Origin: an uncultured Solirubrobacterales bacterium
GTDB taxonomy: Bacteria; Actinomycetota; Thermoleophilia; Solirubrobacterales; Solirubrobacteraceae
DNA length: 64,000 nucleotides
Assembly (NCBI GenBank): GCA_963792735.1
Contig: CAWBXK010000008.1
Span: 14,306 to 78,305 of the forward strand
Direction: 5' to 3'
Shown: positions 36,449-60,717 of the stretch, piece after piece
How the letters are laid out: the number at the start of each line of letters is the position of its first letter
Numbering within the stretch: position 1 is the stretch's first letter
Notes under the pieces: generated by a model
Told to the model about the DNA's origin: nothing
Seen by the model: the letters and a program-made list of their open reading frames with translations, nothing else
Databases searched by the model: none
Translations under genes and position numbers: made by a program

Positions 36449-37300
36449 ATGGATAACGGCACGGTGTCGCCAGATGTAGCTCGCGCCCCGCGAGCAGCTG
36501 TACCGCTCGCTCCGGGGCGAGCTCACACCGATCTCAGCACCGCCGCTCTGTTTGACCGCTGGCGTCGTTTCGGCGATCAGACCGCGCGACAGGAGCTCGT
36601 CGGGCGTTACCTTCCCCTCGCCCGCAAGCTCGCATCGCGGTACATGAGCCCGTACGAGCCGTTCGAGGATCTGGTCCAGGTGGCCAGCCTCGGATTGCTC
36701 GGCGCGGTCGATCGGTTTGATCCCGAACGTGGGGTGGAGTTCTCCTCGTTCGCGATTCCGACCATCCTGGGGGAGCTCAAGCGCTACTTCCGCGGCACGG
36801 GCTGGTCGGCCCATGTTCCGCGGCGGGCCCAGGAGCTGGCGCTGAGGGTCGAGACGGCGTCGCGTCAACTCGCCGAGCGGCCCGGCCCGCCGCCATCGGT
36901 GGCCGAGCTGGCGCAGTATCTGGAGTTGACCACCGAAGAGGTGATCACCGGCCTGGAGGCCGGCTCAGCCCACTACTCGGTGTCGCTCGACGCGCCCCAT
37001 GCCGGCGCCGATAGCGAATCCGATCCGGAGTCCCTGACGGAACGGCTCGGCGATGTCGACGAGCGGTTCGGCCTGATCGACACCACCGTGTCGCTTTCGG
37101 CAGCGCTCACGCACCTCCCGCATCTCGAACGTCAAGCGCTCAGTCTGCGCCTGCGGGAGGACATGAAGCAGACCGAGATCGCCGCCCGTCTGGGCTGCTC
37201 TCAGATGCAGGTGTCGCGGTTGCTGCGACGCGCGGCATCCCGGCTCACCGAGCTCATCGATCCGAGCCGCGCCTCGGGCGGGTCAGCTCAGGACGGCTGA
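36449..37300 (+). CDS. SigB/SigF/SigG-family RNA polymerase sigma factor
   Basis: EDLVQVASLGLLGAVDRFDPERG, FAIPTILGELKRYFR, YSVSLD, QTEIAARLGCSQMQVSRLL. Confidence 0.95.
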   Translation: MDNGTVSPDVARAPRAAVPLAPGRAHTDLSTAALFDRWRRFGDQTARQELVGRYLPLARKLASRYMSPYEPFEDLVQVASLGLLGAVDRFDPERGVEFSSFAIPTILGELKRYFRGTGWSAHVPRRAQELALRVETASRQLAERPGPPPSVAELAQYLELTTEEVITGLEAGSAHYSVSLDAPHAGADSESDPESLTERLGDVDERFGLIDTTVSLSAALTHLPHLERQALSLRLREDMKQTEIAARLGCSQMQVSRLLRRAASRLTELIDPSRASGGSAQDG

Positions 37301-40076: not shown

Positions 40077-43000
40077 GTGTCGCTCCGCGAGCGCCTGACC
40101 CCGCCCCTGGTTCGCCAACTCGGCTCGGACCCGCTGGGGCTCAGCCGAGCGGCGCAATCCCCGCGCTCGGTCCACCTCACTCCGCGCACCGCGAGTGCCG
40201 ACAAGGTGGTCAGATCGGTATGTCCCTACTGCGCGGTCGGCTGCGGCCAGCGCGTGTATGTCAAGGATGAGCGCGTGATCCACATCGAGGGCGATCCGGA
40301 TTCTCCGATCTCCCGCGGCCGCCTGTGCCCCAAGGGATCGGCGTCCGAGCAGCTGGTCAACTCGCCGCAGCGCGAAACCAAGGTCAAGTACCGGCGGCCG
40401 GGCGGCACCGGCTGGGAGGAGCTGTCGCTCGAGCAGGCGACCGAGATGATCGCCGAGCGCCTGATCCGCGTCCGCGAGGAGACCTGGGAGGACACCAATG
40501 ACGACGGCGAGCCGCTGAAGCGCACACTCGGCGTCCACTTCCTGGGCGGGGCGACACTGGACAGCGAGGAGAACTACCTGATCAAGAAGTTCTTCACCTC
40601 GGCCGGTGCGGTGTCGGTCGAGAACCAGGCGCGGATATGACACAGCTCCACGGTTCCCGGTCTGGGAGCCTCGTTCGGGCGCGGCGGTGCCACCACGTTT
40701 CAGCAGGATCTGCAGAACTCCGACTGCATCCTGATCATGGGCTCCAACATGGCCGAGCAGCACCCGGTCGGCTTCCAATGGGTGGTGGAGGCCAAGGCGC
40801 GCGGAGCCAAGGTGATCCACGTCGACCCTCGGTTCACCCGCACCAGCGCGATGGCCGACCGCCACGTGCCGATCCGGGCCGGAAGCGACATTGCCTTCCT
40901 CGGCGGGATCGTCAACTACATCTTCGAGCACGACGCCTGGTTCCGCGAGTACGTCGAGCACTACACCAACGCCCCGGTCCTGATCCGGGAGGACTTCGAC
41001 GACGCGGAGCACGGAGGCGGACTGTTCTCGGGCTGGAACCCGGAGACGGGCGCCTACGACACCGACAGCTGGGGCTACGACGAGACCTCGCCGGGCTCGC
41101 AGGCGGGGTCGCGGGAAGCCGAGGCCGACCAGTCAGGCGAGCAGTCCCACGGCGCTCATGGGCTGAAGCTGGTGGGGGGCAACCCGCCCCATCTCGACCC
41201 GACGATGGAGCACGAGCGCTGCGTGCTGCAGATCGCCAAACGCCACTTCGCCCGTTACACCCCGGAGCTGGTGGCCGACCTGTGCGGATGCTCAGAGGAG
41301 GACTTCCTCGCGGTGGCCCGGACTCTGTGTGAGAACTCCGGCCGCGAACGCACCTCCGCCATCGTCTACGCGGTCGGCTGGACCCAGCACACGGTGGGGG
41401 TGCAGAACATTCGCGCCGCGTCGATCGTGCAGATGCTGCTGGGCAACATCGGTCGCCCCGGTGGCGGCATCCTCGCCCTGCGCGGGCACGCCAACATCCA
41501 GGGCTCGACCGACATACCGACGCTCTACAACATCCTGCCCGGGTACATCCCGATGCCCCACCCGCAGAGGCATCCAACGCTTCAGGCGTTCGTCGAGCAC
41601 AGCGGACCGGAGACCGGTGCCTGGGGAAACCTGTGCAACTACGTGGTCTCCCTGCTCAAGGCCTGGTGGGGCGACGCCGCCACCGAGGCCAACGATTACT
41701 GCTTCGGCCACCTGCCGCGGATCGACGGCGACCATTCGCACTACGCGATGATGCTGAAGATGCTCGACGGCGGGGTACGGGGTATGTTCTGCGTCGGCCA
41801 GAACCCAACCGTGGGCTCGGCGAACTCAAAGCTGATGCGCCTCGCCCTGGCCAAGCTCGACTGGCTCGTGGTGCGCGATTTCCAGCCCACCGAGACCGGT
41901 TCGTTCTGGCTGGACTCGCCCGAGCATGAATCCGGGGAAGTGCGCGCGCGGGACATCCAGACCGAGGTGTTCTTCCTCCCGACCGCCGCGCACACCGAGA
42001 AGGAGGGCTGCTTCACCAATACCCAGCGGCTGCTGCAGTGGCGTGAGAAGGGCTGCGAGCCACCCGGGGAGGCGCGCTCGGACCTGCACTGGATCTACCA
42101 CCTGGGCCGGGCGGTGCGCCGCAAGCTGGCCGATTCCGACGATCCCAAGGATCGGCCGATCCTCCAGCTGACCTGGGACTACCCGGTCAGCGGACCCCAC
42201 GACGAGCCCGACGCGACCGCGATCTTGCGTGAGATCGGGGGCCACGACGCCGATCGGGCGCCACTGCCCAGCTACGACGCGCTCAAGCCCGACGGCTCGA
42301 CCGCGTGCGGTTCGTGGATCCACGCCGGGATCTTCGCCGATGGCGTCAACCAGGCGGCGCGGCGGCGGCCGGGCTCGGAGCAGAACTGGATCGCCCCCGA
42401 GTGGGGGTGGGCGTGGCCCAAGAACGTCCGCATCCTCTACAACCGCGCCTCGGCCGACCCGGAGGGCAAGCCCTGGTCAGAGCGCAAGCGCTATGTGTGG
42501 TGGGACGCTGACCAGGGGCGCTGGACGGGACTGGGCGACGCGGCCGACTTCCCGACCACCAAAGATCCGGGCTACCGGCCCGACGACGACGCCGAGAGCC
42601 TGGACGCGATCGCGGGTGACAAGCCGTTCATCATCACTCCTGACGGGCGCAGCTGGATCTTCGCCCCGACGGGACTGGTCGATGGGCCGCTCCCGCTCCA
42701 CTACGAGCCCCACGAGAGCCACGCTCGCAATCCCCTCTACGGTCAGCAGCGCAACCCCACCCGGCAGCAGTTCCCGCGGCGCGAGAACGCGTATGACCCC
42801 GGCGGTCCCGAGGAGGGGGTGTTCCCGTATGCGCTCACCACCTACCGCCTGACCGAGCACCACACCGCGGGCGGGATGTCGCGGACCGTCCCGTACCTGG
42901 CCGAGCTGCAGCCGGAGTTCTTCTGTGAGGTCTCACCGGAGCTCGCCGCCGAGCGGGGGCTCGAGCCCGCCGGCTGGGCCACGATCATCACCGCGCGCGC

Positions 43001-48753: not shown

Positions 48754-49750
48754 CACCCAACGCCCGGAAGTCGTCGTCGTCACGGGGTCCTCAGGCGGCG
48801 TCGGCCGCGCGATCGCGCATGCGTTCGCCAGGCGGAGCGCGCACGTGGGCCTGGTGGCCCGCGGGGAGAGCGCGTTGCAGGACGTGCGCCGGGAGGTGCA
48901 GGAGCTGGGTGGCCAGGCGCTGGTGGTACCCACCGACGTCGCGCACGCCGAGCAGGTGGAGGCCGCCGCCGAGGCGATCGAGGCGCATTTCGGCCCGATC
49001 GACATCTGGGTCAACGACGCGATGGCGACCGTGTTCGCGCGCGTGATCGACACCACCGCCGAGGAGTTCACCCGCGCCACCCAGGTCACCTATCTGGGCA
49101 CGGTCTACGGAACGATGGCGGCGCTGAAACGGATGACCGCGCGCGATCGCGGGAAGATCGTCCAGGTCGGGTCAGCGCTGTCGTATCGGGCCATCCCCCT
49201 TCAGGCCGCCTACTGCGGCGCCAAGTTCGGCATCCGCGGGTTCACCGATTCGATCCGCACCGAGCTGCTGCACGACCGCAGCCACGTGCAGATCACCATG
49301 GTCCAGCTGCCCGGCGTCAACACCACTCAGTTCAACTGGTGCCGGTCCAAGCTGCCCAATCATCCCCAGCCGGTCCCGCCGATCTATCAGCCCGAGATCC
49401 CCGCCGAGGCCGTGTACTGGGCCGCGCACCACCACCGCCGCGAGCTGTGGGTCGGCTACAGCGCCGTCGAAGCGATCGTGGGCAACATGATCGCGCCCAG
49501 CCTGGCCGATCGCTACCTGGCCAAGACCGGCATCTCCGGACAGCAGATCAAGAACAGGCCGGTTGCCCCGGATCGCCCCGACAACCTGTTCGAGCCGGTG
49601 CCCTCGCTGGCGGCCACGCACGGCATCTTCGACGACCAGGCCAAGTCCCGCAGCCCGCAGCTGTGGGCCACGACGCACCGCTCGCAGATCGCGGCGGCCG
49701 CGCTTGGTGCGGTGCTCGGAGCGGTCGCAGTGACGTCACGGTTGCGATGA
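48746..49750 (+). CDS. SDR-family oxidoreductase
   Basis: TGSSGGVG, WVNDAM, YCGAK (YxxxK). Confidence 0.93.
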   Translation: MGDTQRPEVVVVTGSSGGVGRAIAHAFARRSAHVGLVARGESALQDVRREVQELGGQALVVPTDVAHAEQVEAAAEAIEAHFGPIDIWVNDAMATVFARVIDTTAEEFTRATQVTYLGTVYGTMAALKRMTARDRGKIVQVGSALSYRAIPLQAAYCGAKFGIRGFTDSIRTELLHDRSHVQITMVQLPGVNTTQFNWCRSKLPNHPQPVPPIYQPEIPAEAVYWAAHHHRRELWVGYSAVEAIVGNMIAPSLADRYLAKTGISGQQIKNRPVAPDRPDNLFEPVPSLAATHGIFDDQAKSRSPQLWATTHRSQIAAAALGAVLGAVAVTSRLR

Positions 49751-51516
49751 TCGCGGCGCTCACGGGCGTGGGTGTCCCTCACGCGCTGCGTGATTACGCA
49801 CTGCTCGCCGACGGCGAGCGCGGCGTCCTGGTCGGTCCGCGCGGCGACTACGCCTGGATGTGCTTCCCCCGCTGGGACTCGGCGGCGTGCTTCGCGACCC
49901 TGATCGGCGGCCAGGGCGTCTACGCGGTGACCCCCGACGCCCGCTTCGTGTGGGGAGGCTACTACGAGCACGGCCTGATCTGGCGCAGCCGGTGGGTCAC
50001 CGACGACGGCGGCCTGATCGAGTGCCGCGAGGCCCTGGCGCTACCCGCGCGGCCCGACCGGGTGGTGGTGCTGCGCCAGCTCCTCGCGCGCACCGGACCC
50101 GCGCGCGTGAACGTGGTCCTCGACCTGCGGGCGGACTTCGGCGCTCAGCGGGCCCGCCGCCTCACGCGTGCCGACGACGGAAGCTGGAGCGCGCAGGTGG
50201 GGGAGTCTCACGTGCAGTGGACGGGGGCGGGCACGGCCAAGCCCCGCGCCGACGGTCACGGGGGCGAGCCCCTGGTGATGGCGCTCGAGCTCGCGGAAGG
50301 CGCCGTCCACGACCTGGTCCTGGTCATCGACTCTCGGCCCGACGGCGAGCCGGCGCCCGAGCCGGCGCGCGCCTGGTCGGGCACCGAAGCGGCGTGGCGC
50401 GAGCGCCTGCCCGAGCTGCAGTGCCCGGTGGCGGCCCGCGATGCGCGTCACTCCTACGCGGTGCTGCAGGGACTGACCAGCGCCGGCGGCGGGATGGTGG
50501 CGGCGGCCACGATGTCGCTGCCCGAGCGCGCCCGCCAGGGACGCAATTACGACTACCGCTACGTGTGGATCCGGGATCAGTGCCTGACCGGCCAGGCCGT
50601 GGCCAAGGCCGGTCCGTTCCCCCTGCTGGACGATGCCGTGGGGTTCGTGCGCGATCGCCTGCTGGCGGACGGGCCGAACATGGTGCCCGCCTACACGGTC
50701 ACCGGCGGCCCCGTGCCCGACCAGCGCAGCCTCGGCCTGCCGGGCTACCCGGGCGGGACCGACGTGGTCGGAAACTGGGTCAACCATCAGTTCCAGCTCG
50801 ACGCCTTCGGCGAGTCGCTGCTGCTGTTCGCCGCCGCGGCGGGCCATGACCACCTCGACGCCGACGGCTGGCGTGCGGTGGAAATCGCGGTCGACGCGAT
50901 CGAGCGGCGCTGGCGCGAGGCCGACGCCGGCATCTGGGAGCTCGAGCCCGACCACTGGACCCACAGCCGGCTGATCTGCGCCGCCGGGCTGCGCGCGATC
51001 GCCGCCCATCAGTCCTCGGAGCGGGCCGCCCGCTGGGTGGCCCTGGGCGACGCGATCGTCGCTAGGACCGGCGCCGAGGCGGTTCACCCCGAGGGGCGCT
51101 GGCAGCGCTCCCCGACCGACACGCGGATCGACGCGGCCCTGCTGCTGCCGGCGATCCGGGGCGCGATCCCGGCAGCCGACCCCCGCTCCGTGGCCACGCT
51201 GGAGGCGGTCGAGCGCGAGCTGACCGTGGACGGCTACTGCTTCCGCTACCGCCCCGACGAGCGCCCCCTGGGCGAGTCCGAGGGCGCGTTCCTGCTGTGC
51301 GGCTTCTTGCTCTCGCTGGCCTGGGCCCAGCAGGGCGACGCAGTCCGGGCGGCGCGCTGGTTCGAGCGCAACCGGGCCGCCTGCGGCCCCCCGGGGCTCG
51401 TCTCGGAGGAGTTCGACGTCGCCGAGCGCCAGCTGCGCGGGAACCTGCCGCAGGCGTTCGTGCACGCCGTGCTGCTCCAGTGCGCCGTGACCCAGGATGA
51501 GGCCAGGACGCAGTGA
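49747..51516 (+). CDS. GH15 glycoside hydrolase (cytoplasmic, trehalase/glucoamylase-like)
   Basis: ATGA overlap with SDR; DYALLADGERG, NYDYRYVWIRD, QLDAFGE, DAGIWE, EGAFLLCGF, GNLPQAFVH. Confidence 0.92.
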   Translation: MIAALTGVGVPHALRDYALLADGERGVLVGPRGDYAWMCFPRWDSAACFATLIGGQGVYAVTPDARFVWGGYYEHGLIWRSRWVTDDGGLIECREALALPARPDRVVVLRQLLARTGPARVNVVLDLRADFGAQRARRLTRADDGSWSAQVGESHVQWTGAGTAKPRADGHGGEPLVMALELAEGAVHDLVLVIDSRPDGEPAPEPARAWSGTEAAWRERLPELQCPVAARDARHSYAVLQGLTSAGGGMVAAATMSLPERARQGRNYDYRYVWIRDQCLTGQAVAKAGPFPLLDDAVGFVRDRLLADGPNMVPAYTVTGGPVPDQRSLGLPGYPGGTDVVGNWVNHQFQLDAFGESLLLFAAAAGHDHLDADGWRAVEIAVDAIERRWREADAGIWELEPDHWTHSRLICAAGLRAIAAHQSSERAARWVALGDAIVARTGAEAVHPEGRWQRSPTDTRIDAALLLPAIRGAIPAADPRSVATLEAVERELTVDGYCFRYRPDERPLGESEGAFLLCGFLLSLAWAQQGDAVRAARWFERNRAACGPPGLVSEEFDVAERQLRGNLPQAFVHAVLLQCAVTQDEARTQ

Positions 51517-51866
51517 GTCAGATTCTCACCGCCGTTCGGGCCGTCTACGGTGCGGTCCTGCTGCTGGGCTCCGAGCATCTCCTCAGCCGCCTGTCCGGCG
51601 CGCCGGTCGACTCCCGCGCCCGTACCGTGGCGCGGGTGCTGGGGGCGCGGGAGCTGCTCCAGGCCGAGCTGACATGCCGGTATCCCACCCGCGCCGTGCG
51701 GCGCCTCGGGGTCGGGGTCGACTCAGTTCACGCTGCCTCGATGGTGGCGCTGGCCGTGCTCGATCCGGCCCGGCGGAGACTGGCGACGCACAACGCCGTC
51801 AGCGCGGCGGCGCTGGCGCTGGCTGGAGCCGCCGCCGTCTACTTCGCCCCGGCTTCGCGCTCTTGA
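51513..51866 (+). CDS. Small membrane protein
   Basis: GTGA overlap with GH15; ARVLGARELLQA, GVDSVHAASM. Confidence 0.7.
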   Translation: MSQILTAVRAVYGAVLLLGSEHLLSRLSGAPVDSRARTVARVLGARELLQAELTCRYPTRAVRRLGVGVDSVHAASMVALAVLDPARRRLATHNAVSAAALALAGAAAVYFAPASRS

Positions 51867-52234
51867 TCTCGCGCCCGCCGGAGCATGAACGCGCCGATCG
51901 AGCCGGCCATCGTCCCGACGACCGTGATCGCGTAGGCCTCCATGCCGATGTCGAGGATCCGCCCGGGCGCCGAGGTCGGGTTCTGGATCTGCGAGGACAC
52001 CGTGAGCAGCTGCGTCGAGGTCCAGAACAGGGCGCTGCCGTAGGACTTCAGCTGCGTCATCGGCTGGCCGTGCTCGAACCAGAACGACAGCGCGGCGCAG
52101 ATCAGGTCGACGGCGACGCTGACGATCAGCAGCCCCATGATCCGGTCGCGCAGCTCACCGTGGGTGGGCGTCTCGGCCCGGACGATGCGGCGAAGCTCGC
52201 CGGCGGCCCGGCGCACGAGACCTATGGCGTACAC
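51839..52234 (-). CDS. Two-TM ion-channel-like protein (KcsA/Ion_trans_2 topology) with non-canonical filter
   Basis: TM1, SYGSALFWTSTQLLTVSSQIQNPTSAPGRIL, TM2; start uncertain. Confidence 0.65.
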   Translation of the reverse strand: MYAIGLVRRAAGELRRIVRAETPTHGELRDRIMGLLIVSVAVDLICAALSFWFEHGQPMTQLKSYGSALFWTSTQLLTVSSQIQNPTSAPGRILDIGMEAYAITVVGTMAGSIGAFMLRRARDQEREAGAK

Positions 52235-52473
52235 CGCTCTGTATTCGGGGCGAACCCGGCCCGTCCTGTGCGCGGCGCTCGGGCACCCCGGGAACGGACG
52301 TGATGAGTCTGAGTGACCGCATGCGCCGCTCAGTCTCATCACGCCCGGATTCCGGCCGGTCCGGAGCGATTCCGACTCGAGTTGTGTGACGTCGGTCACG
52401 GTTGCGCGCTTTAGGCGGACCCGACCCCGACGAACGGGGTACATATGAATACCAACCCCCAAAGGAGCAATTG

Positions 52474-52983
52474 ATGCCTGAAGACAATCAGGGCGAACGC
52501 ACCGCCGGCGGCGTGGTCGGCCGCGCGGTCGGCAAAGCCAAGGAGGCGCTCGGCAGCGTCATCGACAATGACGAGCTGGCCCGCGAGGGGCGCCTGCAGC
52601 AGGCCCAGTCCGAAACCGAGCTCGAAGCCCGCCGCGAGGCCCAGGAGGCAAAGGCGCAGGAGCAGCGAGCCGAGGTCCGCGAACGCCAGGTGGAGGTCGA
52701 GACCGAGCGCGAGCGGCTCCAGAATGAGGTGGCCGCCAACCAGCGCGAGGAACGGATCGAGCAGGACCGGCGCGAGGCCGAACAGCGTGCCGCGGCGCAA
52801 GCCGCACAGGAGCGCGCGGCCGCGCAATCCCAGCTACAGGCCGAGCAGGACAACGCGGAGCGCTCCGTGCAGGCGGCCGAGCGCCAGCGCGTGGCCACGA
52901 CGGAGGAGGCGAACCGGCTCGAGCGTGAGGCCAGTGCCGCCGAGCGCCGCGCCGAGCACCTGGATCCCAAGGAGGAGTCATGA
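52474..52983 (+). CDS. CsbD-like stress protein with Glu/Gln/Arg-rich coiled-coil tail
   Basis: AAGGAG RBS; GKAKEALGSVIDNDELAREGRLQQ. Confidence 0.75.
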   Translation: MPEDNQGERTAGGVVGRAVGKAKEALGSVIDNDELAREGRLQQAQSETELEARREAQEAKAQEQRAEVRERQVEVETERERLQNEVAANQREERIEQDRREAEQRAAAQAAQERAAAQSQLQAEQDNAERSVQAAERQRVATTEEANRLEREASAAERRAEHLDPKEES

Positions 52984-53615
52984 AGACGCGTGACATCGCC
53001 ACTGCCACGATCGACGGCTATCTGAAGCTGGTGCGGCGCCCGGCCGACTTCGCTGTCAGCCTGCTGCCGGGCCGCCGAACCGGGCCCGGCGCCACGGCCA
53101 AGGTGACCCTGGACCGTGTTGACGCAACCGTGCGGGCAGTCGTCGGCACGGCACTGCGCAACGAGGGTCTCAAGCAGGACGCTCAGCGCCGCCGCGCGGC
53201 CGCGTCCGAACGCGAGCAGGCGGCCGATCTGCGCCGCCAAGCCGAGGCGCAGGCCGAGCACGCCGAAGCTCGCGTCGAGTCCCGCCACCAGGAGGCCGCC
53301 GGGCGGCGCGAGCGCGCGAGCGCCAAGGCCAACGCGCGGCGCACGGATGCCACCCAGAAGCAGCGCAGCCGGAGCCGCCGTGCGCAGGAGAGCGAGCGCG
53401 AGCGAGTTCAAGCCAGCCGCAAGCAGGAGGATCGGACGGCCGAGCAGATCGAGGCCGAGGCCGCCGAAGCCCGCCTGCCGGCCATGGCGGAGGAGGCGCG
53501 GGCGCTCGAGGAGCGTGAGGCCGCGCTTGATCGCAGCGACGAGGCCCAGCGCTTGGGCGACGCCGCGGCTCGCGTCAAGGAGGAGCGCAAGTCAGAGCCG
53601 GGCGCCCCGGTCTGA
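52980..53615 (+). CDS. Ala/Arg/Glu-rich coiled-coil protein
   Basis: ATGA overlap; low-complexity charged helix-forming sequence. Confidence 0.7.
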   Translation: MKTRDIATATIDGYLKLVRRPADFAVSLLPGRRTGPGATAKVTLDRVDATVRAVVGTALRNEGLKQDAQRRRAAASEREQAADLRRQAEAQAEHAEARVESRHQEAAGRRERASAKANARRTDATQKQRSRSRRAQESERERVQASRKQEDRTAEQIEAEAAEARLPAMAEEARALEEREAALDRSDEAQRLGDAAARVKEERKSEPGAPV

Positions 53616-53622
53616 CCCGGAG

Positions 53623-53653
53623 GGGCTCCCTACCCGGCCCGGGTGGGGAGCCC
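53623..53653. terminator. Hairpin between convergent operons
   Basis: GGGCTCCCTACCCG-GCC-CGGGTGGGGAGCCC: 14-bp stem with one G-U pair, covering the gpgS stop. Confidence 0.6.
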
Positions 53654-55279
53654 GTCCTGCCGGCGGCCCTCCAGGTCGGCGAGCGGGGGACGCTCGAGCA
53701 CCGGAACCGCCGCCACCGCGCCGTCGTCCCAGGGCCGCACATAGGTGCCGCCGATCGGGCTGCGCCCGCCACCGAGCCGCCGCTCCACCGCCGCCAGCAC
53801 GGCGTAGGCCATCTCTCCGAGCAACCGCAGCGGCTGATGGCGATTCTGGCGGCTGCCGAGATGGCACTCCGCCAGCGCGTCGAGTCCGTAGAGGCGGAGG
53901 GCGTCGATCAGCACCGCGATCTCCACGCCGTAGCCGACCGGGAACGGAATCGCCTCCAACAGCTCTCGCCGACCGGCGAACTCGCCCGCCAGCGGCTGCG
54001 CGAAGCCGGCCAGCCGCGGCTCGTGCAGGTTCAGCAGCGGCCGGGCCATGAGCTCGGTCACCCGGCCTCCCTCGTGAGCCAGCTGCTCGGCGCCGGCCTG
54101 CAGCGGCCGGTCGAAGGCCCCCTTGACGAGGACCAGGGAGTCGTCGGTCAGCATCGGGCCGAGCAGGCCCTGAAGGTGGCTCGGCTGAGGATTTCGCGTG
54201 TCGCCGTCCAGGAAGCACACCACGTCGCCTCCGGTGGCTCGCAGCGAGCGCCACATCGCGTCGCCCTTGCCCAGGGCCGGGCCGCGGTCGGTCAGCAGCT
54301 GATCCTGCTGCAGGACCCGGGCCCCCGCGGCGGCGGCGATCGCGGCCGTCCCGTCCTGAGAGCCGGCGTCGACCACGACGAGCTCGTCGACCAGTCCCAG
54401 CTCGGCCAGCGGCGCGACGGTCTGGCGCAGCACCGACGCGATCGTGTCAGCGCAGTCCTTGGTCGGGATGATCACCGTCACCGACGTCGCGCCTTTGCGC
54501 GCGGCGAGCATCTCGGGTGCGAAGTCGCCGGCGCGGTAGCGCCGCCGCTCGGTCCACACGGAGACGTCGAGGTCCACGGACAGGCCGCGGGCCACGCGTC
54601 CGTCCGAGCGTGCCGAGGTTCGCACGCGGACGTCGGACGGGCGCAGAATGGGGATGCGATGGTCCTCGAGGCGGGCCGCGAACGCTGCGTCCTCGAGCAC
54701 GGGGACCGCCTCCAGGCCTCCGACGGCTCGGTACACGGCGGCCGTCACCCCGAGCGAGGCACCCGCGAAGTGATGGTGGCGCGCGTCGGGGTCCACCGCG
54801 CGAACCCGTTGCAGCCGTGCCGCGGCATCTCGCTCGCGTCGCGCCAGCACGCCGTCGGGCAGCTCGGCGAGCTCAGTCGGATCGAGCTCGATCAGGCCGG
54901 CGATGGCACTCGCCCCCAGTTGCACGTGCGCTCGCTGGCGCTCGAGCCAGTCGGCGGCCGGACAGGAGTCCGCGTCAGTACACGCGATCAGCCCGTCGGG
55001 CCGGCCCAGGGCCAGCAGCCGGGCCGCGGCGGCGTCCATCCCAGCTCGTCTCGCCGCGCCGGGACCGAGCCCGGGTCCAGGCAGCGTGCTCAGCGCGAGG
55101 CCGAGTTCGCCGGCGACCGAGTTCACCACCGCCCCGGTGTCGTCCCGGCAGTCGTCGAGCACCACGATCGTCTCGAACGTCTCGGCGGATACGGTCTGGT
55201 TGGCCAGCGCGCGCAGGCACGCTGCGATCCGCCGCGCCTCGTCGCGCGCCGGCACCACGACGATGCAGCTCAGTTCCAT
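53630..55279 (-). CDS. gpgS: GT2 glycosyltransferase fused to glucosyl-3-phosphoglycerate synthase
   Basis: N-domain VVVPARDEA...LIACTDADS...EDAAF...TSAR; C-domain GKGDAMWRSL, FLDGD, GGRVTELMARPLL, QPLAGE, GYGVEI, RQNRHQ. Confidence 0.88.
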   Translation of the reverse strand: MELSCIVVVPARDEARRIAACLRALANQTVSAETFETIVVLDDCRDDTGAVVNSVAGELGLALSTLPGPGLGPGAARRAGMDAAAARLLALGRPDGLIACTDADSCPAADWLERQRAHVQLGASAIAGLIELDPTELAELPDGVLARRERDAAARLQRVRAVDPDARHHHFAGASLGVTAAVYRAVGGLEAVPVLEDAAFAARLEDHRIPILRPSDVRVRTSARSDGRVARGLSVDLDVSVWTERRRYRAGDFAPEMLAARKGATSVTVIIPTKDCADTIASVLRQTVAPLAELGLVDELVVVDAGSQDGTAAIAAAAGARVLQQDQLLTDRGPALGKGDAMWRSLRATGGDVVCFLDGDTRNPQPSHLQGLLGPMLTDDSLVLVKGAFDRPLQAGAEQLAHEGGRVTELMARPLLNLHEPRLAGFAQPLAGEFAGRRELLEAIPFPVGYGVEIAVLIDALRLYGLDALAECHLGSRQNRHQPLRLLGEMAYAVLAAVERRLGGGRSPIGGTYVRPWDDGAVAAVPVLERPPLADLEGRRQDGLPTRAG

Positions 55280-56442
55280 GCGGCCCCCTCCTCGATCAGC
55301 GAGCGCCCCTGCTCGTAGGCGTCGTCGCGGTCGTGCGCCAGGACGCCCACCACCCGGCCCTCCCGGCCGTACCAGACGGCGAAGGCGCCTTCCGGCCCCC
55401 GCTCGAACCGGGACACGTCGTAGCCGTCACCCCAGGCGGCGTACTTCAGCGTGCGCGTCGCGATCGTCGACCAGAACCCGGGAACGTCGCCCCAGGGTTC
55501 GGGCCGGGCCGCCGCCGTGCGACCGGCCACAGCGCCCTGGCCGAGCGCGTCACCCCAGTGCTCGACCCGTAACCGGCGACCGGCGGTGGCGTTCTCGGCC
55601 GAGCAGACATCGCCGGCGGCGAGCACGTACGGCAGGCTGGTGCGCATCGCGGCGTCGGCGGCGACGCCGCCCCCGTCGATGACGTGCGCGCCCGCGGCCA
55701 CGGCGAGCTCGAGTCGCGGGGCGACTCCGGTGGCCATGATCACGATCGTGCCGGAGGTCCGGGCGCCTGCGGCCACTACATCGAGCCCGGTCTCGGTGCG
55801 CTCGATCGCCTCCACCGCTTCCCCCAGCCCCAGCTCGACGCCCTCCTGGCGCAGCCAGCCCAGAATCTCCGCGCCCGCCTCCTCGCCGAGACGGCCGACG
55901 TTGGGCGCAGGCTCGTCGGATACGAGCGCCACCGGATGACCGCGCCGCCGTAGCGAGGCAGCGATCTCGCAGCCGATGAAGCCCGAGCCGATCACGACCG
56001 CCCGCGCCCCCGGCGCCAGGCGGTGCTGCAACTCGCGCAGATGATCGAGCGACCGCAGGACCACGACGCCGGGATCATCGGCGCCCGGCACGGGGATGCG
56101 CTTGGGCTCGGCCCCGGTGGCGAGCACGCAGTGTCGGTATTCGAGCTCACGGCCGCCCGAGAGGGTCACCGTGCGCGCGTGCGGATCGAGGTGGGCGGCC
56201 CGGCCCGAGACCAGGGCCACGTGATTGCCGCAGAACCAGCGCTCATCCTCGAGCGGCAGCTCCTCCTCGGCCATCTCCCCGCGCAGCAGCTCCTTGGTCA
56301 GGGGCGGTCGGTTGTACGGCATGCGGTGCTCGTCGGCGATGATCGCCACCGCCCCAGCACCGCCGGCATCGCGATAGGCCCGCACCGCCGAGAGCCCGGC
56401 CGGCCCCCCGCCGATCGCCAGCAGCCCGAACGCCGCGCTCAC
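55270..56442 (-). CDS. FAD-dependent NAD(P)H oxidoreductase (ferredoxin reductase-like)
   Basis: IGGGPAG, PYNRPPLTK, LATGAEP, IGSGFIGCE, AAGDV, RVEHW, FWS. Confidence 0.92.
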   Translation of the reverse strand: MSAAFGLLAIGGGPAGLSAVRAYRDAGGAGAVAIIADEHRMPYNRPPLTKELLRGEMAEEELPLEDERWFCGNHVALVSGRAAHLDPHARTVTLSGGRELEYRHCVLATGAEPKRIPVPGADDPGVVVLRSLDHLRELQHRLAPGARAVVIGSGFIGCEIAASLRRRGHPVALVSDEPAPNVGRLGEEAGAEILGWLRQEGVELGLGEAVEAIERTETGLDVVAAGARTSGTIVIMATGVAPRLELAVAAGAHVIDGGGVAADAAMRTSLPYVLAAGDVCSAENATAGRRLRVEHWGDALGQGAVAGRTAAARPEPWGDVPGFWSTIATRTLKYAAWGDGYDVSRFERGPEGAFAVWYGREGRVVGVLAHDRDDAYEQGRSLIEEGAAWN

Positions 56443-57008
56443 GAACGCTCCAGCACATCGAGCTCGTAATCAGTCGTGCCGGCCGAGGCGACCGGCGCCA
56501 ACCAGGACTGGTCGCGCAGCTGCTGGTGCACCTGCTGGGCGCTGAACGGCCGCTCCGGGCCGGGCGGGCGCCAGTGCACCGCGACCAGCCGGCCGCCGCG
56601 GGTCAGCAGCTCCCCCAGCACCGCGAGGGTTGAGCCGAGCTCGGCGGGGGGGAGGTAGTAGAGGATCTCGGAGGCGACGACCAGGTCGTAGGGCCGGCGC
56701 GGGATCGCGTCCGGAATCCGGCCCAGGATCGCCGTGACGTTGTGCCGGCCTGACAACCGCTCCCGCGCCACCGTCACCGCGGTGGGGGCGGCGTCGACGG
56801 TGACCAGCGAATCGCAGCGGGGCGCCAGCAGCTCGCTGAACACGCCGATCGAGCTCCCCAGCTCCAGCGCGCTCGCGAACCGACCGGGGCCGCAGGCGTC
56901 CAGCGTGGCCTCGTACTTCTCACGCTCGTAGGCACGGCTGTTGTAGCCCCAGGGGTCGGGATCGGTCTGATAGCGGGCTTCGAAGTCGGCGGGGGACATG
57001 TGGGCCAT
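56439..57008 (-). CDS. NodS-like SAM-dependent methyltransferase
   Basis: FEARYQTDPDPW...YEREKY, LELGSSIG, DLVVASEILYYL, LVAVHWR. Confidence 0.88.
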   Translation of the reverse strand: MAHMSPADFEARYQTDPDPWGYNSRAYEREKYEATLDACGPGRFASALELGSSIGVFSELLAPRCDSLVTVDAAPTAVTVARERLSGRHNVTAILGRIPDAIPRRPYDLVVASEILYYLPPAELGSTLAVLGELLTRGGRLVAVHWRPPGPERPFSAQQVHQQLRDQSWLAPVASAGTTDYELDVLERS

Positions 57009-57009
57009 C

Positions 57010-58118
57010 TCAGACACCGTCGACCGTCGCGGCGTCCGCGATGGCGGCTTCGCCCGCCCGCGCGAGCAGCGGATCGAGCCGATGCTGAAGCAGGAACACC
57101 TGCAGGTCGCGACGCGAGCGATCAAGCGCATCGGCGCGCACGAACGGCCGCGATCCGCACGCTCGCGCGGCCTCGTCCAGGAGCAACCGGCAGGCGTCGG
57201 AGATCGCCGCTCGCGCGTGCAGACCGACCGCGGCCAGATCCGGGCCGGAGAGGTCCATCGCCGAGGCCGCCGCGTCGATCCAGACCGAAATGGTCCGCTG
57301 GGCGGTGAGCATGCGGCCCGCGGCCACGGCCTCGAGCTGGCTGCTCGCCGGCCGCGCCGCCAGCCCGGCCAGCGCCGCCCGCACGGCGGTATCGGCCATG
57401 CCGGCCCAGGACGCCGCGGTACGCAGCGCGTCGCGGGCGAACCAGGGCGGCTCGGAAATGCTTCCGGGTCCTCCGAGCTGGGCCATCACCGGCGCGTCGT
57501 CGAACACCACGCGGTGTGACACCGACGCCCGCAGGCCGTGGGAGAGATACCAGGACTCGTCGATCTCGATCCGCGCGTGGTCGGTCATGTCGATCCACAC
57601 CAGAAGCGGTGGCCCGCCGTGTTCGGCGCGGGCCAGCACGAGGGCGCGGTGCAGCCCACCCGCGCCGGAGCAGAACGTCTTCACACCGCGCAGGACCCGC
57701 GCCCCACCCCGCTCGAGCACCATCGCGGGGGCTCCTTCCCCGGCACGGGGTCACCGCCCCACACGCCTGCGCGCAGCTCGCCGGACGCCACGGCGGCCAG
57801 CTCGCGCTCACGCAGGCCCGGCGGTCCCTGCACGGCGATCCGCTCGACCGCGTTGAGATGCCCGTCGAAGATCCGCCCGACCGAGCCGTCGGCCGCCGCC
57901 ACCCGCCGGACCAGCCCGAGCTCGTCGGCGGCGGGCGGTCGCTGCGGCCCGAGCCCGGCGTTGAACGCCAGCGCGCCGGCCCGCTCGAGGCGGGCGATCG
58001 CCGCCTCGGGAAAGGCAGGGTGGGGCTCGGCGTCGAGCTTCCCCGCCTCGGTGGCGATCAGTTCAAGCGCCTGCTCGAGCTCCGCCGCGGCCTCGGCGCG
58101 GGCCAGCAGCGCGGTCAC
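57010..58118 (-). pseudogene. Acyl-CoA dehydrogenase-like protein split by a 1-nt frameshift
   Basis: N-part (DGSVGRIFDGHLNA, GVWGGDP) and C-part (GVKTFCSGAG, LRASVS, RDLQVFLLQHR). Adding one base to the C4 run at 57738-57741 gives DPVPGEGAPAMVL and about 369 aa. May be a sequencing indel. Confidence 0.75.
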
Positions 58119-58687
58119 CGCAGGGCCCTCAGCGCGAGACCGTGGCGGCGGGCGTGATCGATCGCCAGCTCGGCGTAGGCCAGCGTTGCCGTGGCGTCCT
58201 GCCGCCGTGATCCAGGGCCGATCCCGTCGTGGGCGAGCACGATCGCTCCGGCCGTCAACGCGTCACGCGTGGCGGCGAACATCTCGGGTGCCGCGTCGCC
58301 GCGCCAGTCGTGCGTGTCCACGCTCCAGCCGACCAGGCGCAGGCCGTGATCGGCGGCGATCCGTGGCGTCCACGACGCGGTGTCACCCCACGGCGTGCGC
58401 CACAGCGACGGCTTGACGCCGAGCCGGCGCAGGCGGGTGAGGGCGCGCCCGGTGTCGATCCGACACCACTCCGCGTCCTGGGCGGAGTGGCGCACGTGAC
58501 GATCGCAGTGCAGGCCGACCGTGTGGCCCTCGGCCAGCATCCGCTCGATCAGCGCCGGATGTTCGGCGGCCCGGGGAGCGATCGGAAAGAACGTCGCCTC
58601 GGCTCCGCTGCGGGCGAGCAGGTCGAGCAGCGGCGGCGTGTAACGGCCGTCCGGCCCATCGTCGAATGTCAGCGCGAGCGCCTGCAC
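58115..58687 (-). CDS. Polysaccharide deacetylase (NodB/CE4)
   Basis: ALTFDDGP, GLHCDRH, RTPWG, VGWSVDTHDW, IVLAHD. Confidence 0.92.
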   Translation of the reverse strand: MQALALTFDDGPDGRYTPPLLDLLARSGAEATFFPIAPRAAEHPALIERMLAEGHTVGLHCDRHVRHSAQDAEWCRIDTGRALTRLRRLGVKPSLWRTPWGDTASWTPRIAADHGLRLVGWSVDTHDWRGDAAPEMFAATRDALTAGAIVLAHDGIGPGSRRQDATATLAYAELAIDHARRHGLALRALR

Positions 58688-58697
58688 TTAGAACATC

Positions 58698-58721
58698 TAC
58701 CCGCGGGAGGAGCTTCATCAC
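58698..58721 (-). promoter_or_regulatory. SigB/SigF-type promoter candidate
   Basis: GTGA-N15-GGGTA, 10 nt before GTG 58687. Confidence 0.5.
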
Positions 58722-58745: not shown

Positions 58746-58771
58746 GTTAGACGGTGGGGCGTTTGGGGGTA
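58746..58771 (+). promoter_or_regulatory. SigB/SigF-type promoter candidate
   Basis: GTTA-N17-GGGTA, 10 nt before ATG 58782. Confidence 0.55.
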
Positions 58772-58781
58772 GTGAGGGACG

Positions 58782-59435
58782 ATGGCGATTGCGATCCTCG
58801 ATATCGACGGCACGCTGGTGGACACCAACTACCACCACGTGATCGCGTGGGCCCGGGCCTTCGAGCAGTACGAGATCGTGCTGGCGCTGTGGCGCGTGCA
58901 CCGTCACATCGGAATGGGCGGCGACCAGGTCGTGGCCGCCCTGTGCGGCGACGAGGTGGAGAACGAGCTCGGCGACGACATCCGTGCCGCGGAGGGCGAG
59001 CGCTACCGCGAGCTGATCGACGAGGTGAAGACGATGGAGGGAGCGCGTGAGCTGATCGTCGCGCTCAAGGAGCGTGATCACGCGGTCGTGCTCGCGAGCT
59101 CGGCCAAGCAGGACGAGGCCGACCACTATCTGGACCTGCTCGACGCCCGCTCGCTCGCTGACGCCTGGACCACGTCGGCTGACGTGGAGGAGACCAAGCC
59201 CGCCCCGGACCTGGTCCGAGCCGCATTGAAGCGGGTCGAGAACCATCCCGGCCCGGCGGTCATGGTCGGCGACACGCCGTGGGACGTCAAGGCGGCGGCC
59301 GCGGCCGATGTGCAGACCATCGCCGTGGTCACGGGGGGTTTTGCCTCGCAGGAGCTGCGCGACGCCGGCGCCGCCGCGGTGTTCGAGTCGGTGGCGGAGC
59401 TGTGCGAACGGCTCGAGGAGACGCCGCTGCGCTGA
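58782..59435 (+). CDS. HAD-family hydrolase
   Basis: LDIDGTLVD, LASS, KPAPD, MVGDTPWD. Confidence 0.93.
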   Translation: MAIAILDIDGTLVDTNYHHVIAWARAFEQYEIVLALWRVHRHIGMGGDQVVAALCGDEVENELGDDIRAAEGERYRELIDEVKTMEGARELIVALKERDHAVVLASSAKQDEADHYLDLLDARSLADAWTTSADVEETKPAPDLVRAALKRVENHPGPAVMVGDTPWDVKAAAAADVQTIAVVTGGFASQELRDAGAAAVFESVAELCERLEETPLR

Positions 59436-59559
59436 CGGAGGGGCCTGGACGTGCGGAAGGTGGTGGCAGGGGATCGCTGGACAGATGGCCAAGGCACGCC
59501 GGTGCCGTGGCGGGCTTAATGTCCAGGTGAGCGAAACCGCCCAACCATGCGAGAGCTCC

Positions 59560-60717
59560 ATGGACGCCCCGACGTGGTCTGAGTGGGTTCCGTCGCGGCC
59601 GTTCTCGGTCGGTTTGGAGGAGGAGGTGATGCTCCTGGCGCCCGATCACGACTGGGCTCTGGCCCAGCGTTCCGACGACGTCCTGCCGGCGCTGTCCCCC
59701 GAGTTGGCCGAGCACGTCTCGGCGGAGACCCACAGCTCGGTCATCGAGCTCGCCACCTTCCCCCACCCGGACGTTGAGAGTGTCGCCGAGCAGGCGGGGC
59801 GGCTGCGCGCGCGCCTCGCCGACGAGCTGGGCCCGATGGGGCTGCGGGCCGCCTGCGCCGGAACCCACCCCCGCGCGGTATGGACCGAGATCGTGGTCTC
59901 GGCCGGAGACCGCTACCAGGAGGTCCACGCGGCGATGCGGGAACTGGCCCGGCGGGAGCCGACGCTGGGACTGCACGTCCACATCGGGGTGGACGACCCG
60001 GAAGCCGCCATCTCTCTGCACAACCGGCTGCGCGCCCACCTGCCGTTGCTGCTGGCGCTGTCGGCCAACTCCCCGTTCTGGCAGGGCCGCGACACCGGGT
60101 TGGCCTCGGCGCGGACGCCGATCTTCCAGGCATTTCCGCGCGTCGGAATCCCGCGCGAATTTGACGACTACCAGGACTACGTGGAAACGGTCGACCGGCT
60201 CCTGCGCTGCGGCGCGTTCCCGGATCCCACCTACCTGTGGTGGGACATCAGGCCACAGCCGCGGTTCGGGACAGTCGAGGTACGGATCATGGACGTGCAG
60301 CTCAACCCCACCGACACGCGAGCGCTGGTCGCCCTCGTGCAGTCCATCGCCTATCTGGAGCTCGAGGAGGGTTATCACTCCAGCGATCTGGCCGGGGGAG
60401 CCGAGGTCCTGGCCGAGAACCGCTTCCTGGCCTCACGGGATGGCATGCAGGCGCGGCTGATCGACGCGGTCAACGAGGAACAGGTGCCGGCGCTGACGGC
60501 GGTCGGGCGTCTGATCGACGCGACCCGGCCCTATGCCGAGGTGCTCGGTTGCGTGGAGGCGCTCGAGAGCGTGGCGGCCCTGGCCCGCGAGACCGGGGCC
60601 TCGCGCCAGCGCCAGGTCCGGGACGACTGCGGCGCGATGGCGTCGGTGGCGCGGTACCTGGCCGACGACTTCAGCGCCCCGTTCGGGCGCGGCACGAGCC
60701 GACCGGACCATCGCTGA
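59560..60717 (+). CDS. ybdK: Second YbdK/GCS2 carboxylate-amine ligase
   Basis: FSVGLEEEVMLL, AGTHP, GLHVHIG, ANSPFWQGRDTGLASAR, WWDIRPQPRFGTVEVRIMD; start uncertain. Confidence 0.9.
   Translation: MDAPTWSEWVPSRPFSVGLEEEVMLLAPDHDWALAQRSDDVLPALSPELAEHVSAETHSSVIELATFPHPDVESVAEQAGRLRARLADELGPMGLRAACAGTHPRAVWTEIVVSAGDRYQEVHAAMRELARREPTLGLHVHIGVDDPEAAISLHNRLRAHLPLLLALSANSPFWQGRDTGLASARTPIFQAFPRVGIPREFDDYQDYVETVDRLLRCGAFPDPTYLWWDIRPQPRFGTVEVRIMDVQLNPTDTRALVALVQSIAYLELEEGYHSSDLAGGAEVLAENRFLASRDGMQARLIDAVNEEQVPALTAVGRLIDATRPYAEVLGCVEALESVAALARETGASRQRQVRDDCGAMASVARYLADDFSAPFGRGTSRPDHR

Follow-up and report, generated by a model that had tools for sequence, protein, structure and literature searches.

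A stress-promoter operon of Solirubrobacteraceae and Rubrobacteraceae that may build a modified amino-sugar glycoside on glucosylglycerate

The 64,000-nt stretch of DNA analyzed here (hereafter the window; 74% G+C) comes from an uncultured Solirubrobacterales bacterium (assembly GCA_963792735.1, contig CAWBXK010000008.1, positions 14,306 to 78,305) and carries on its minus strand, at 53630-58687, a compact block of five genes. Homologues of proteins from the window bear Solirubrobacteraceae names. The five genes code for a carbohydrate esterase family 4 (CE4) deacetylase, a flavoenzyme of the acyl-CoA dehydrogenase (ACAD) fold, a NodS-like methyltransferase, a ferredoxin-reductase-type flavoprotein and a fusion of a family 2 glycosyltransferase (GT2) with a glucosyl-3-phosphoglycerate synthase (GpgS). 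We tentatively propose that the block specifies a cytoplasmic pathway, induced in general stress, which takes glucosyl(3-phospho)glycerate as the base for a small, modified amino-sugar glycoside. An earlier note on this DNA had interpreted the operon as a stress-induced route to a deacetylated, methylated sugar conjugate. That interpretation is partly supported by our analysis, and the nature of the conjugate is something that we, too, infer.

All five genes were recovered on the minus strand, overlapping or abutting at each junction, as expected of the tightly coupled operon described in the earlier note. In the order of transcription the junctions read GTGA, TGAgATG, GTGA and a 10-nt overlap; the GTG start of the flavoenzyme gene overlaps the stop codon of the CE4 gene as GTGA, and the methyltransferase gene starts 1 nt past the preceding stop, its true start being the ATG at 57008. 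None of the five proteins contains a hydrophobic or membrane segment and all are soluble, which leads us to reject a membrane or envelope role for the operon.

Two actinobacterial families, belonging to two classes, have the five-gene arrangement as their standard form. Two relatives retrieved by exact look-up carry all five genes in the order seen here. Synteny comparison recovered the block with its order kept in about 75 of 80 Solirubrobacterales species loci, and the same order (deacetylase, flavoenzyme, methyltransferase, reductase, GT2) in 15/15 Rubrobacteraceae loci examined, nine of which also have a GpgS-like C-terminal half on the GT2. The genes thus co-occur in related genomes, where a lack of co-occurrence would, by the earlier note, have refuted its interpretation, and the arrangement that it described as that of this particular genome is standard in soil-borne Solirubrobacteraceae and in Rubrobacteraceae. 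Across 301 genomes sampled evenly from the phylum, the flavoenzyme is confined to two taxonomic families, that of the source organism and the Rubrobacteraceae; the second can be named because the glycosyltransferase of one locus (L115) is ABG04307.1 of the cultured Rubrobacter xylanophilus DSM 9941. The genes that flank the block differ between relatives, so what is conserved is the five-gene block itself (the cassette). A few relatives (L043, L075, L088, L117) have lost the reductase gene while keeping the other genes, and a few lack the adjacent deacetylase. The conservation of gene order goes far beyond chance.

Upstream of the operon lies a SigB/F-type promoter (58698-58721, minus strand), with a -35-like GTG at 58721-58719 and a -10 GGGTA at 58702-58698 that starts 15 nt ahead of the GTG start codon, leaving 9 nt between the -10 hexamer and the start. 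The SigB/SigF consensus comprises a GTTT -35 element, a 12-17-nt spacer and a GGGTA(T/C) -10 element, and motif, spacing and the presence of sigma genes in the genome all fit a promoter of this group 3 sigma type. In 67 of 74 aligned upstream regions GGGTA occurs at most 45 nt from the start codon, mostly exactly 15 nt before it; across the 74 loci a GTK is found at -19 to -17 relative to GGGTA, and the information content is about zero elsewhere. This conservation of position without conservation of the flanking bases confirms that the GGGTA promoter pointed out in the earlier note is real. The spacing allows a leader of 1-3 nt at most, so the five genes would be transcribed from it as one leaderless, or nearly leaderless, mRNA. 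A SigB/SigF/SigG-type sigma gene (TIGR02980; 235.5 bits, cut-off 234.35) is present in the window at 36548-37279, the source genome holds at least four such paralogues, and in about ten relatives a TIGR02980 sigma gene adjoins the operon divergently. Stress induction through the predicted SigB/F-type promoter, also claimed in the earlier note, is well supported at the level of sequence by the phylogenetic footprint and by the sigma genes beside the operon.

On the other side of the promoter region, a HAD-IA phosphatase gene (58782-59435, plus strand; 58746-59435 with its promoter; HAD_2, 101.5 bits) is preceded by its own GTT...GGGTA, the GGGTA at 58767-58771 standing 15 nt before the ATG, so the 94-nt intergenic region appears to hold two back-to-back stress promoters. 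Among 24 relatives examined, 14 have GGGTA 14-17 nt before the start of the phosphatase gene, and some have a TAGGAT-type -10 element instead. The gene is the divergent neighbor in about 28 of 80 relatives, which makes the phosphatase a candidate for a co-regulated enzyme loosely attached to the operon.

The last gene of the operon codes for a 549-aa protein (53630-55279) that joins two glycosyltransferases. Its N-terminal half (residues 1-250; 54530-55279) is an inverting GT2 domain of the GT-A fold that matches PF00535 and PF13641, has a DAD motif at residue 102 and contains no membrane segment. The C-terminal half (residues 251-549; 53630-54529) belongs to family GT81, the glucosyl/mannosyl-3-phosphoglycerate synthases: it scores 353 bits against the NF010496 equivalog (cut-off 262), and its alignment with MpgS of R. 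xylanophilus (3f1y; E 1e-72) covers 262 residues, that with mycobacterial GpgS (E 6e-65) about 285. The motifs GKGDAMW, DGD, GGRVTEL, QPLAGEF and RQNRHQ are kept and align with 3f1y and 7p5l, and the loops for donor, metal and 3-phosphoglycerate are likewise retained, suggesting that this half is an active glycosyl-3-phosphoglycerate synthase. It shares its catalytic and 3-phosphoglycerate-binding motifs with the R. xylanophilus (3f1y) and mycobacterial (4y6n, 7p5l) enzymes, but whereas the known GT81 enzymes stand alone, here the synthase forms the C-terminal domain of a protein with two glycosyltransferases, encoded in a tailoring operon. Internal duplication as the origin of the two halves was ruled out, only a 44-residue N-terminal GT-A motif being common to them.

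A bona fide GpgS was found in all 14 genomes tested. In the source genome (G000; 4.9 Mb in 11 contigs) the fused half alone exceeds the NF010496 cut-off and is hence the sole GpgS; cassette-less genera of the same family have a stand-alone GpgS, some cassette-bearing genomes have both forms, and the Rubrobacteraceae retain a stand-alone enzyme alongside a fused half that has diverged to scores below the cut-off (116-174 bits). In a tree of GpgS sequences, the fused halves of the source genus form one clade, that of another genome (G300) is sister to G300's own stand-alone gpgS, and those of the Rubrobacteraceae form a third, long-branched clade. The tree is best read as indicating that a gpgS copy became joined to the cassette GT2 repeatedly, in at least two or three separate clades, with the number of events uncertain owing to the long Rubrobacteraceae branch. 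Such repeated fusion argues that the GT2 and GpgS halves catalyze consecutive steps. Among database proteins, fusions of CE4 with the flavoenzyme (P0256, P0264, P0385) or of the flavoenzyme with the methyltransferase (P0262, P0266, P0331) argue likewise for consecutive action of these three enzymes; some of these fusions could be gene-calling artefacts at 4-nt overlaps.

The second gene, labeled an acyl-CoA dehydrogenase in the earlier note, is best read as encoding not a dehydrogenase but a predicted two-component flavin monooxygenase of the DszC/MsuC type. It lies in two reading frames, an N-terminal part at 57739-58118 (frame A, reliable as far as ...GDPVPG) and a C-terminal part at 57010-57738 (frame B), separated by a frameshift that is discussed below. 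True acyl-CoA dehydrogenases have ACAD N, M and C domains and a catalytic glutamate region; of the Pfam ACAD domains only Acyl-CoA_dh_M was matched, at 22.1 bits against a threshold of 33.3. A 30-sequence profile of the family found DszC (E 1.6e-26), MsuC (1e-25) and TdsC as its top matches, followed not far behind by the nitrososynthase KijD3; DnmZ, another nitrososynthase, matched as well. The C-terminal motif RRDLxLFLLQHRLDP aligns with RNVRTHSLHDP in DszC and RNLRTQTLHDP in MsuC, in the region that provides the catalytic base in dehydrogenases, and an AlphaFold model (predicted local distance difference test, pLDDT, 96.2) has its best fold matches in MAB_4123, DszC, TdsC and MsuC. The enzyme thus has the ACAD fold of DszC/TdsC, MsuC, SfnB, KijD3, ORF36 and DnmZ (template-modeling score up to 0.84, to DszC) and, in common with the DszC/MsuC class, an R-x-x-R...L-H/Q-x-x-D-P motif in place of the ACAD catalytic-base region. 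It differs from that class in being only about 20% identical and shorter (360 aa), and in its partner reductase, which is of the ferredoxin-reductase type. Equivalog scores are low (DszC, 23-39 bits, cut-off 850; SfnB, 17-45 bits, cut-off 431), and the enzyme falls in a separate small family with 714 cluster representatives at E<=1e-3 among 1.84 billion.

The reductase (390 aa; 55270-56442) is a ferredoxin/rubredoxin-reductase-type flavoprotein that would use flavin adenine dinucleotide and NAD(P)H. It matches Pyr_redox_2 (PF07992, 171.9 bits) and Reductase_C (PF14759, 26.1 bits), shows both glycine (GxGxxG) dinucleotide motifs and has 3fg2, BphA4 and putidaredoxin reductase as its nearest solved structures. 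No ferredoxin or rubredoxin gene was found in or beside the operon, either in the window or in two relatives (L009/L010). If the flavoenzyme is a monooxygenase, the adjoining reductase gains a role as supplier of reduced flavin, which also fits the occasional loss of its gene in relatives; it is the probable electron donor of the monooxygenase. In the finished R. xylanophilus DSM 9941 genome (L115, 7725-8884), the reductase aligns in one frame except for its first ~58 residues, which fall in another, owing to a true frameshift or else to an unusual start.

The first gene (58115-58687) encodes a cytoplasmic, metal-dependent deacetylase of 190 aa that begins at its TFDDG motif. It belongs to CE4, judged by the Pfam gathering threshold (PF01522, 78.7 bits, cut-off 23.1) and by the motifs TFDD, H(S/T)xxH, RxPY, DxxDW and LxH, all five of which have counterparts here (TFDDG, HCDRH, RTPWG, DTHDW and LAH). 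Its best NCBIfam match is NodB (TIGR04243) at 113.5 bits, below the equivalog cut-off of 240, placing it outside NodB proper. The third gene (56439-57008) encodes a 189-aa class I S-adenosylmethionine-dependent methyltransferase that scores 58.7 bits against the NodS family (PF05401, cut-off 24) and 73.6 bits against the NodS equivalog NF041650, below the cut-off of 300; its nearest solved structures are 4isc and NodS 3ofj, the latter being the nearest characterized enzyme.

These assignments relate the operon to a known but differently composed gene set. A GT2, a NodS-like methyltransferase, a BshB-like deacetylase of the PIG-L family and an ACAD-fold protein are found together in Euzebya (L118), in a related metagenome contig (L135) and in an actinobacterial metagenome-assembled genome (MAG; L136); named homologues of the Euzebya flavoenzyme are from Euzebya, Ilumatobacter and Acidimicrobiales. 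An acyl-CoA dehydrogenase, an N-acetylglucosaminyl-phosphatidylinositol (GlcNAc-PI) de-N-acetylase, a methyltransferase and a glycosyltransferase are also drawn beside blsA, as context only, in a paper on an Acinetobacter photoreceptor (PMC9020721). The PIG-L cassette that the earlier note cited therefore exists. Full-text literature searches on combinations of the enzyme names returned no study of its product, in line with the statement in that note that the product is unassigned. The flavoenzyme, methyltransferase and GT2 of the operon are 31-35% identical to their L118 counterparts (GT2, 31%), and tight coupling, soluble products and the presence of a deacetylase are common to both sets. 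Three of the four components are thus homologous, but the CE4 enzyme is a non-homologous replacement of PIG-L, the operon gains a flavoprotein of the ferredoxin-reductase type, its GT2 carries a fused GpgS domain, and the order deacetylase-flavoenzyme-methyltransferase-reductase-glycosyltransferase is fixed. The first three of these departures had been proposed in the earlier note and are confirmed by the family matches; by sequence comparison, the operon is a CE4/reductase/GpgS variant of the PIG-L cassette rather than a member of it.

Two characterized pathways offer guides to its chemistry. In rhizobial Nod-factor tailoring, NodC (GT2) is followed by NodB (CE4 de-N-acetylase), NodS (N-methyltransferase) and NodA. 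The nearest named families of the operon deacetylase and methyltransferase are NodB and NodS, and the logic would be alike, with N-acetylglucosamine (GlcNAc) added by a GT2, then deacetylated, and the freed amine N-methylated. However, neither protein comes near its equivalog cut-off (NodB or NodS), a membrane-bound processive NodC and a NodA acyltransferase are absent, the operon has a flavin monooxygenase and a reductase in their place, and the acceptor is probably a glyceryl glycoside as opposed to a chitin oligomer. With the mycothiol and bacillithiol pathways (MshA/MshB/MshC, BshA/BshB/BshC) the operon shares the logic of transferring GlcNAc onto a small acid or polyol, de-N-acetylating it and clearing phosphorylated intermediates with a phosphatase. 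Here the glycosyltransferase is GT2 whereas theirs is GT4, and a methyltransferase and an oxygenase replace the Cys ligase; nothing in the operon supports a thiol cofactor as its product. No MshC above the family cut-off (TIGR03447, 485.1) was found in nine genomes of Solirubrobacteraceae, Rubrobacteraceae and Euzebya (G000, G045, G145, G300, G056, G041, G154, G193 and G216; matches of 255-382 bits), so mycothiol is probably absent from them. Matches below the cut-off also occur in 12 of 14 control genomes, and those near 280 bits are probably cysteinyl-tRNA synthetases.

In the scheme that we propose, whose substrates, order of steps and site of oxygenation are conjectural, the GT81 half would first convert a nucleoside diphosphate-hexose and 3-phosphoglycerate into glucosyl- or mannosyl-3-phosphoglycerate. 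The fused GT2 half would then attach a beta-linked N-acetylhexosamine, as the fusion and the enzymes that follow suggest, the CE4 enzyme would take off the N-acetyl group, and the NodS-like enzyme would methylate the freed amine in the manner of NodB and NodS in Nod-factor synthesis. An N-acetylhexosaminide is argued for as the substrate because a PIG-L de-N-acetylase of the BshB/MshB kind fills the deacetylase slot in the sister cassette. The DszC-like monooxygenase would finally oxygenate a heteroatom, most plausibly that nitrogen, with reduced flavin from the ferredoxin-reductase-type flavoprotein, and phosphate might be removed by the divergent HAD phosphatase.

Several points weigh against this proposal. 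The sequence of the GT2 does not reveal which donor and acceptor it uses. The GpgS half is missing in 6/15 Rubrobacteraceae loci and in all PIG-L cassettes seen, and in the remaining Rubrobacteraceae loci it has diverged below the cut-off, as noted above, so the acceptor need not be glucosylglycerate everywhere. The HAD phosphatase is a neighbor in only about a third of the relatives. The fold search parts monooxygenases from true ACADs narrowly (E 1e-14 versus 1e-13), two-component monooxygenases are normally served by small flavin reductases and not by proteins of the ferredoxin-reductase type, and DszC, MsuC and SfnB oxidize sulfur, so that nitrogen as the site of oxygenation is a guess. 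It is possible, if rather doubtful, that the same amino-sugar tailoring takes place on an acceptor other than glucosylglycerate, the GpgS half being an independent housekeeping enzyme fused to the GT2 since both are wanted under the same stress regime. The cassettes without a GpgS half would fit such an arrangement, as would the stand-alone GpgS of cassette-less genera of the same family and the fact that the fused copy, as the only GpgS in the source genome, must also serve the general need for glucosylglycerate. Against it stand the separate clades of fused GpgS halves, given that repeated fusion is usually a sign of consecutive steps, and the finding that every tested Rubrobacteraceae genome with an unfused GT2 has a GpgS elsewhere, so glucosylglycerate stays available as an acceptor.

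We consider it very unlikely that the product is instead an intracellular methylated and acylated oligosaccharide primed on glucosylglycerate, with O-methylation, a CE4 esterase and acyl handling by the ACAD-fold protein. The model for such a product would be mycobacterial methylglucose lipopolysaccharide (MGLP), the synthesis of which likewise begins with GpgS and requires methyltransferases and acyl-handling enzymes; O-acetyl esterases do exist among CE4 enzymes. However, the alpha-1,4-glucan-forming GT4 or GH57 and acyltransferase genes are absent in and beside the block, the nearest characterized methyltransferase is the N-methyltransferase NodS, the sister cassette has a PIG-L de-N-acetylase, and the flavoenzyme groups with monooxygenases while its Pfam ACAD domains remain below threshold. 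Within the amino-sugar glycoside proposal, a more specific product can be put forward as a speculation, and an improbable one: an N-methylated, N-oxygenated hexosaminyl-glucosylglycerate (a hydroxylamine, nitrone or N-oxide) under SigB/F control that might act as a redox-active protectant and not as a mere osmolyte. Such a compound would represent an undescribed class among small stress metabolites. Its hosts would be desiccation- and radiation-tolerant Rubrobacteria and Thermoleophilia that lack mycothiol, having no MshC.

The frameshift in the monooxygenase gene bears on whether the operon is functional in the source organism. It maps to a G4 run at 57741-57738 (minus strand), where relatives imply one additional base; from this run frame B reads GEGAPAMV, which fits the family consensus GEG(D/P/E)PA(T/M)V, and frame A reads KEPPRW and then a stop. 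A C5 run at 57731-57727, considered as another candidate site, was dropped after nucleotide comparison with relatives. The N-terminal part aligns to intact homologues of 360-363 aa (P0121 and P0122), and the C-terminal part is 75-91% identical to intact relatives, in which the gene is uninterrupted (356-373 aa); it lies in a single frame in 80/80 other loci. We regard the frameshift as very probably an assembly error, judging from the pattern of substitutions and breaks, which fits an artefact or else a lesion of very recent date. That the break is real, which would make the monooxygenase gene a pseudogene of recent origin in an operon at the onset of decay, a concern raised in the earlier note, appears improbable: the break does stand in the deposited sequence, and other frame breaks in the source genome are not all in long homopolymers, but the lesion is a single 1-nt indel with no others in the gene, and the downstream half has a ratio of nonsynonymous to synonymous substitution rates (dN/dS) of 0.095 against the closest relative (L035), the lowest in the operon. 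Moreover, frame breaks in the five operon genes affect 13/259 copies in long-read MAGs versus 1/128 in short-read assemblies (5% versus 0.8%), and further conserved genes of the source genome are broken, among them a serA-like gene (phosphoglycerate dehydrogenase, by eye; C3:131032-131361) with two frame changes 330 nt apart, one sign of assembly indel errors. Frameshift 'pseudogenes' in long-read soil MAG assemblies should be treated with suspicion.

The cassette is conserved across phyla and has been annotated in thousands of genomes, and that it has apparently never been given a product marks a gap in basic bacterial metabolism. The CE4 variant offers two handles beyond those of the PIG-L form: the GpgS fusion, which points to a glucosylglycerate scaffold, and the in-operon reductase, which points to a two-component oxygenase. 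A cultured organism and a stress regulon can now be connected with this variant. R. xylanophilus DSM 9941 is a biochemically studied extremophile whose solutes have been catalogued, in a genus known for radiation resistance, and the presence of the cassette in this strain under a recognizable general-stress promoter makes the question of its product directly testable. A new protectant or redox compound, if that is what the operon makes, would bear on the survival of drying and radiation by deep-branching Actinomycetota.

Elsewhere in the window, GGGTA is found at -15 or -16 before the starts at 40077, 45846 and 61287, which belong to a formate dehydrogenase gene, a 159-aa open reading frame and a luciferase-like monooxygenase gene; these additional starts suggest that a large leaderless SigB/F-type regulon may exist. 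A naive genome-wide scan for GGGTA at leaderless distance, which also counted sites within genes, gave no enrichment over control pentamers and serves only to supply single examples. Downstream of the operon and convergent with it, the plus-strand region 49339-53615 has genes for a trehalase-like GH15 enzyme, for a general stress protein resembling CsbD and for a family-less, Ala/Arg/Glu-rich protein of 211 aa. It looks like a stress-gene neighborhood, and the trehalase-like and CsbD-like neighbors speak for the proposed stress-induced pathway. The GCS2/YbdK carboxylate-amine ligase gene at 59308-60717, inserted in the window between the HAD gene and a pyrophosphatase gene, was rejected as part of the system, being absent in the closest relatives and in 13/15 Rubrobacteraceae loci; a GCS2 paralogue occurs at most 3 kb from the cassette in R. 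xylanophilus (L115) and in one other locus (L116).

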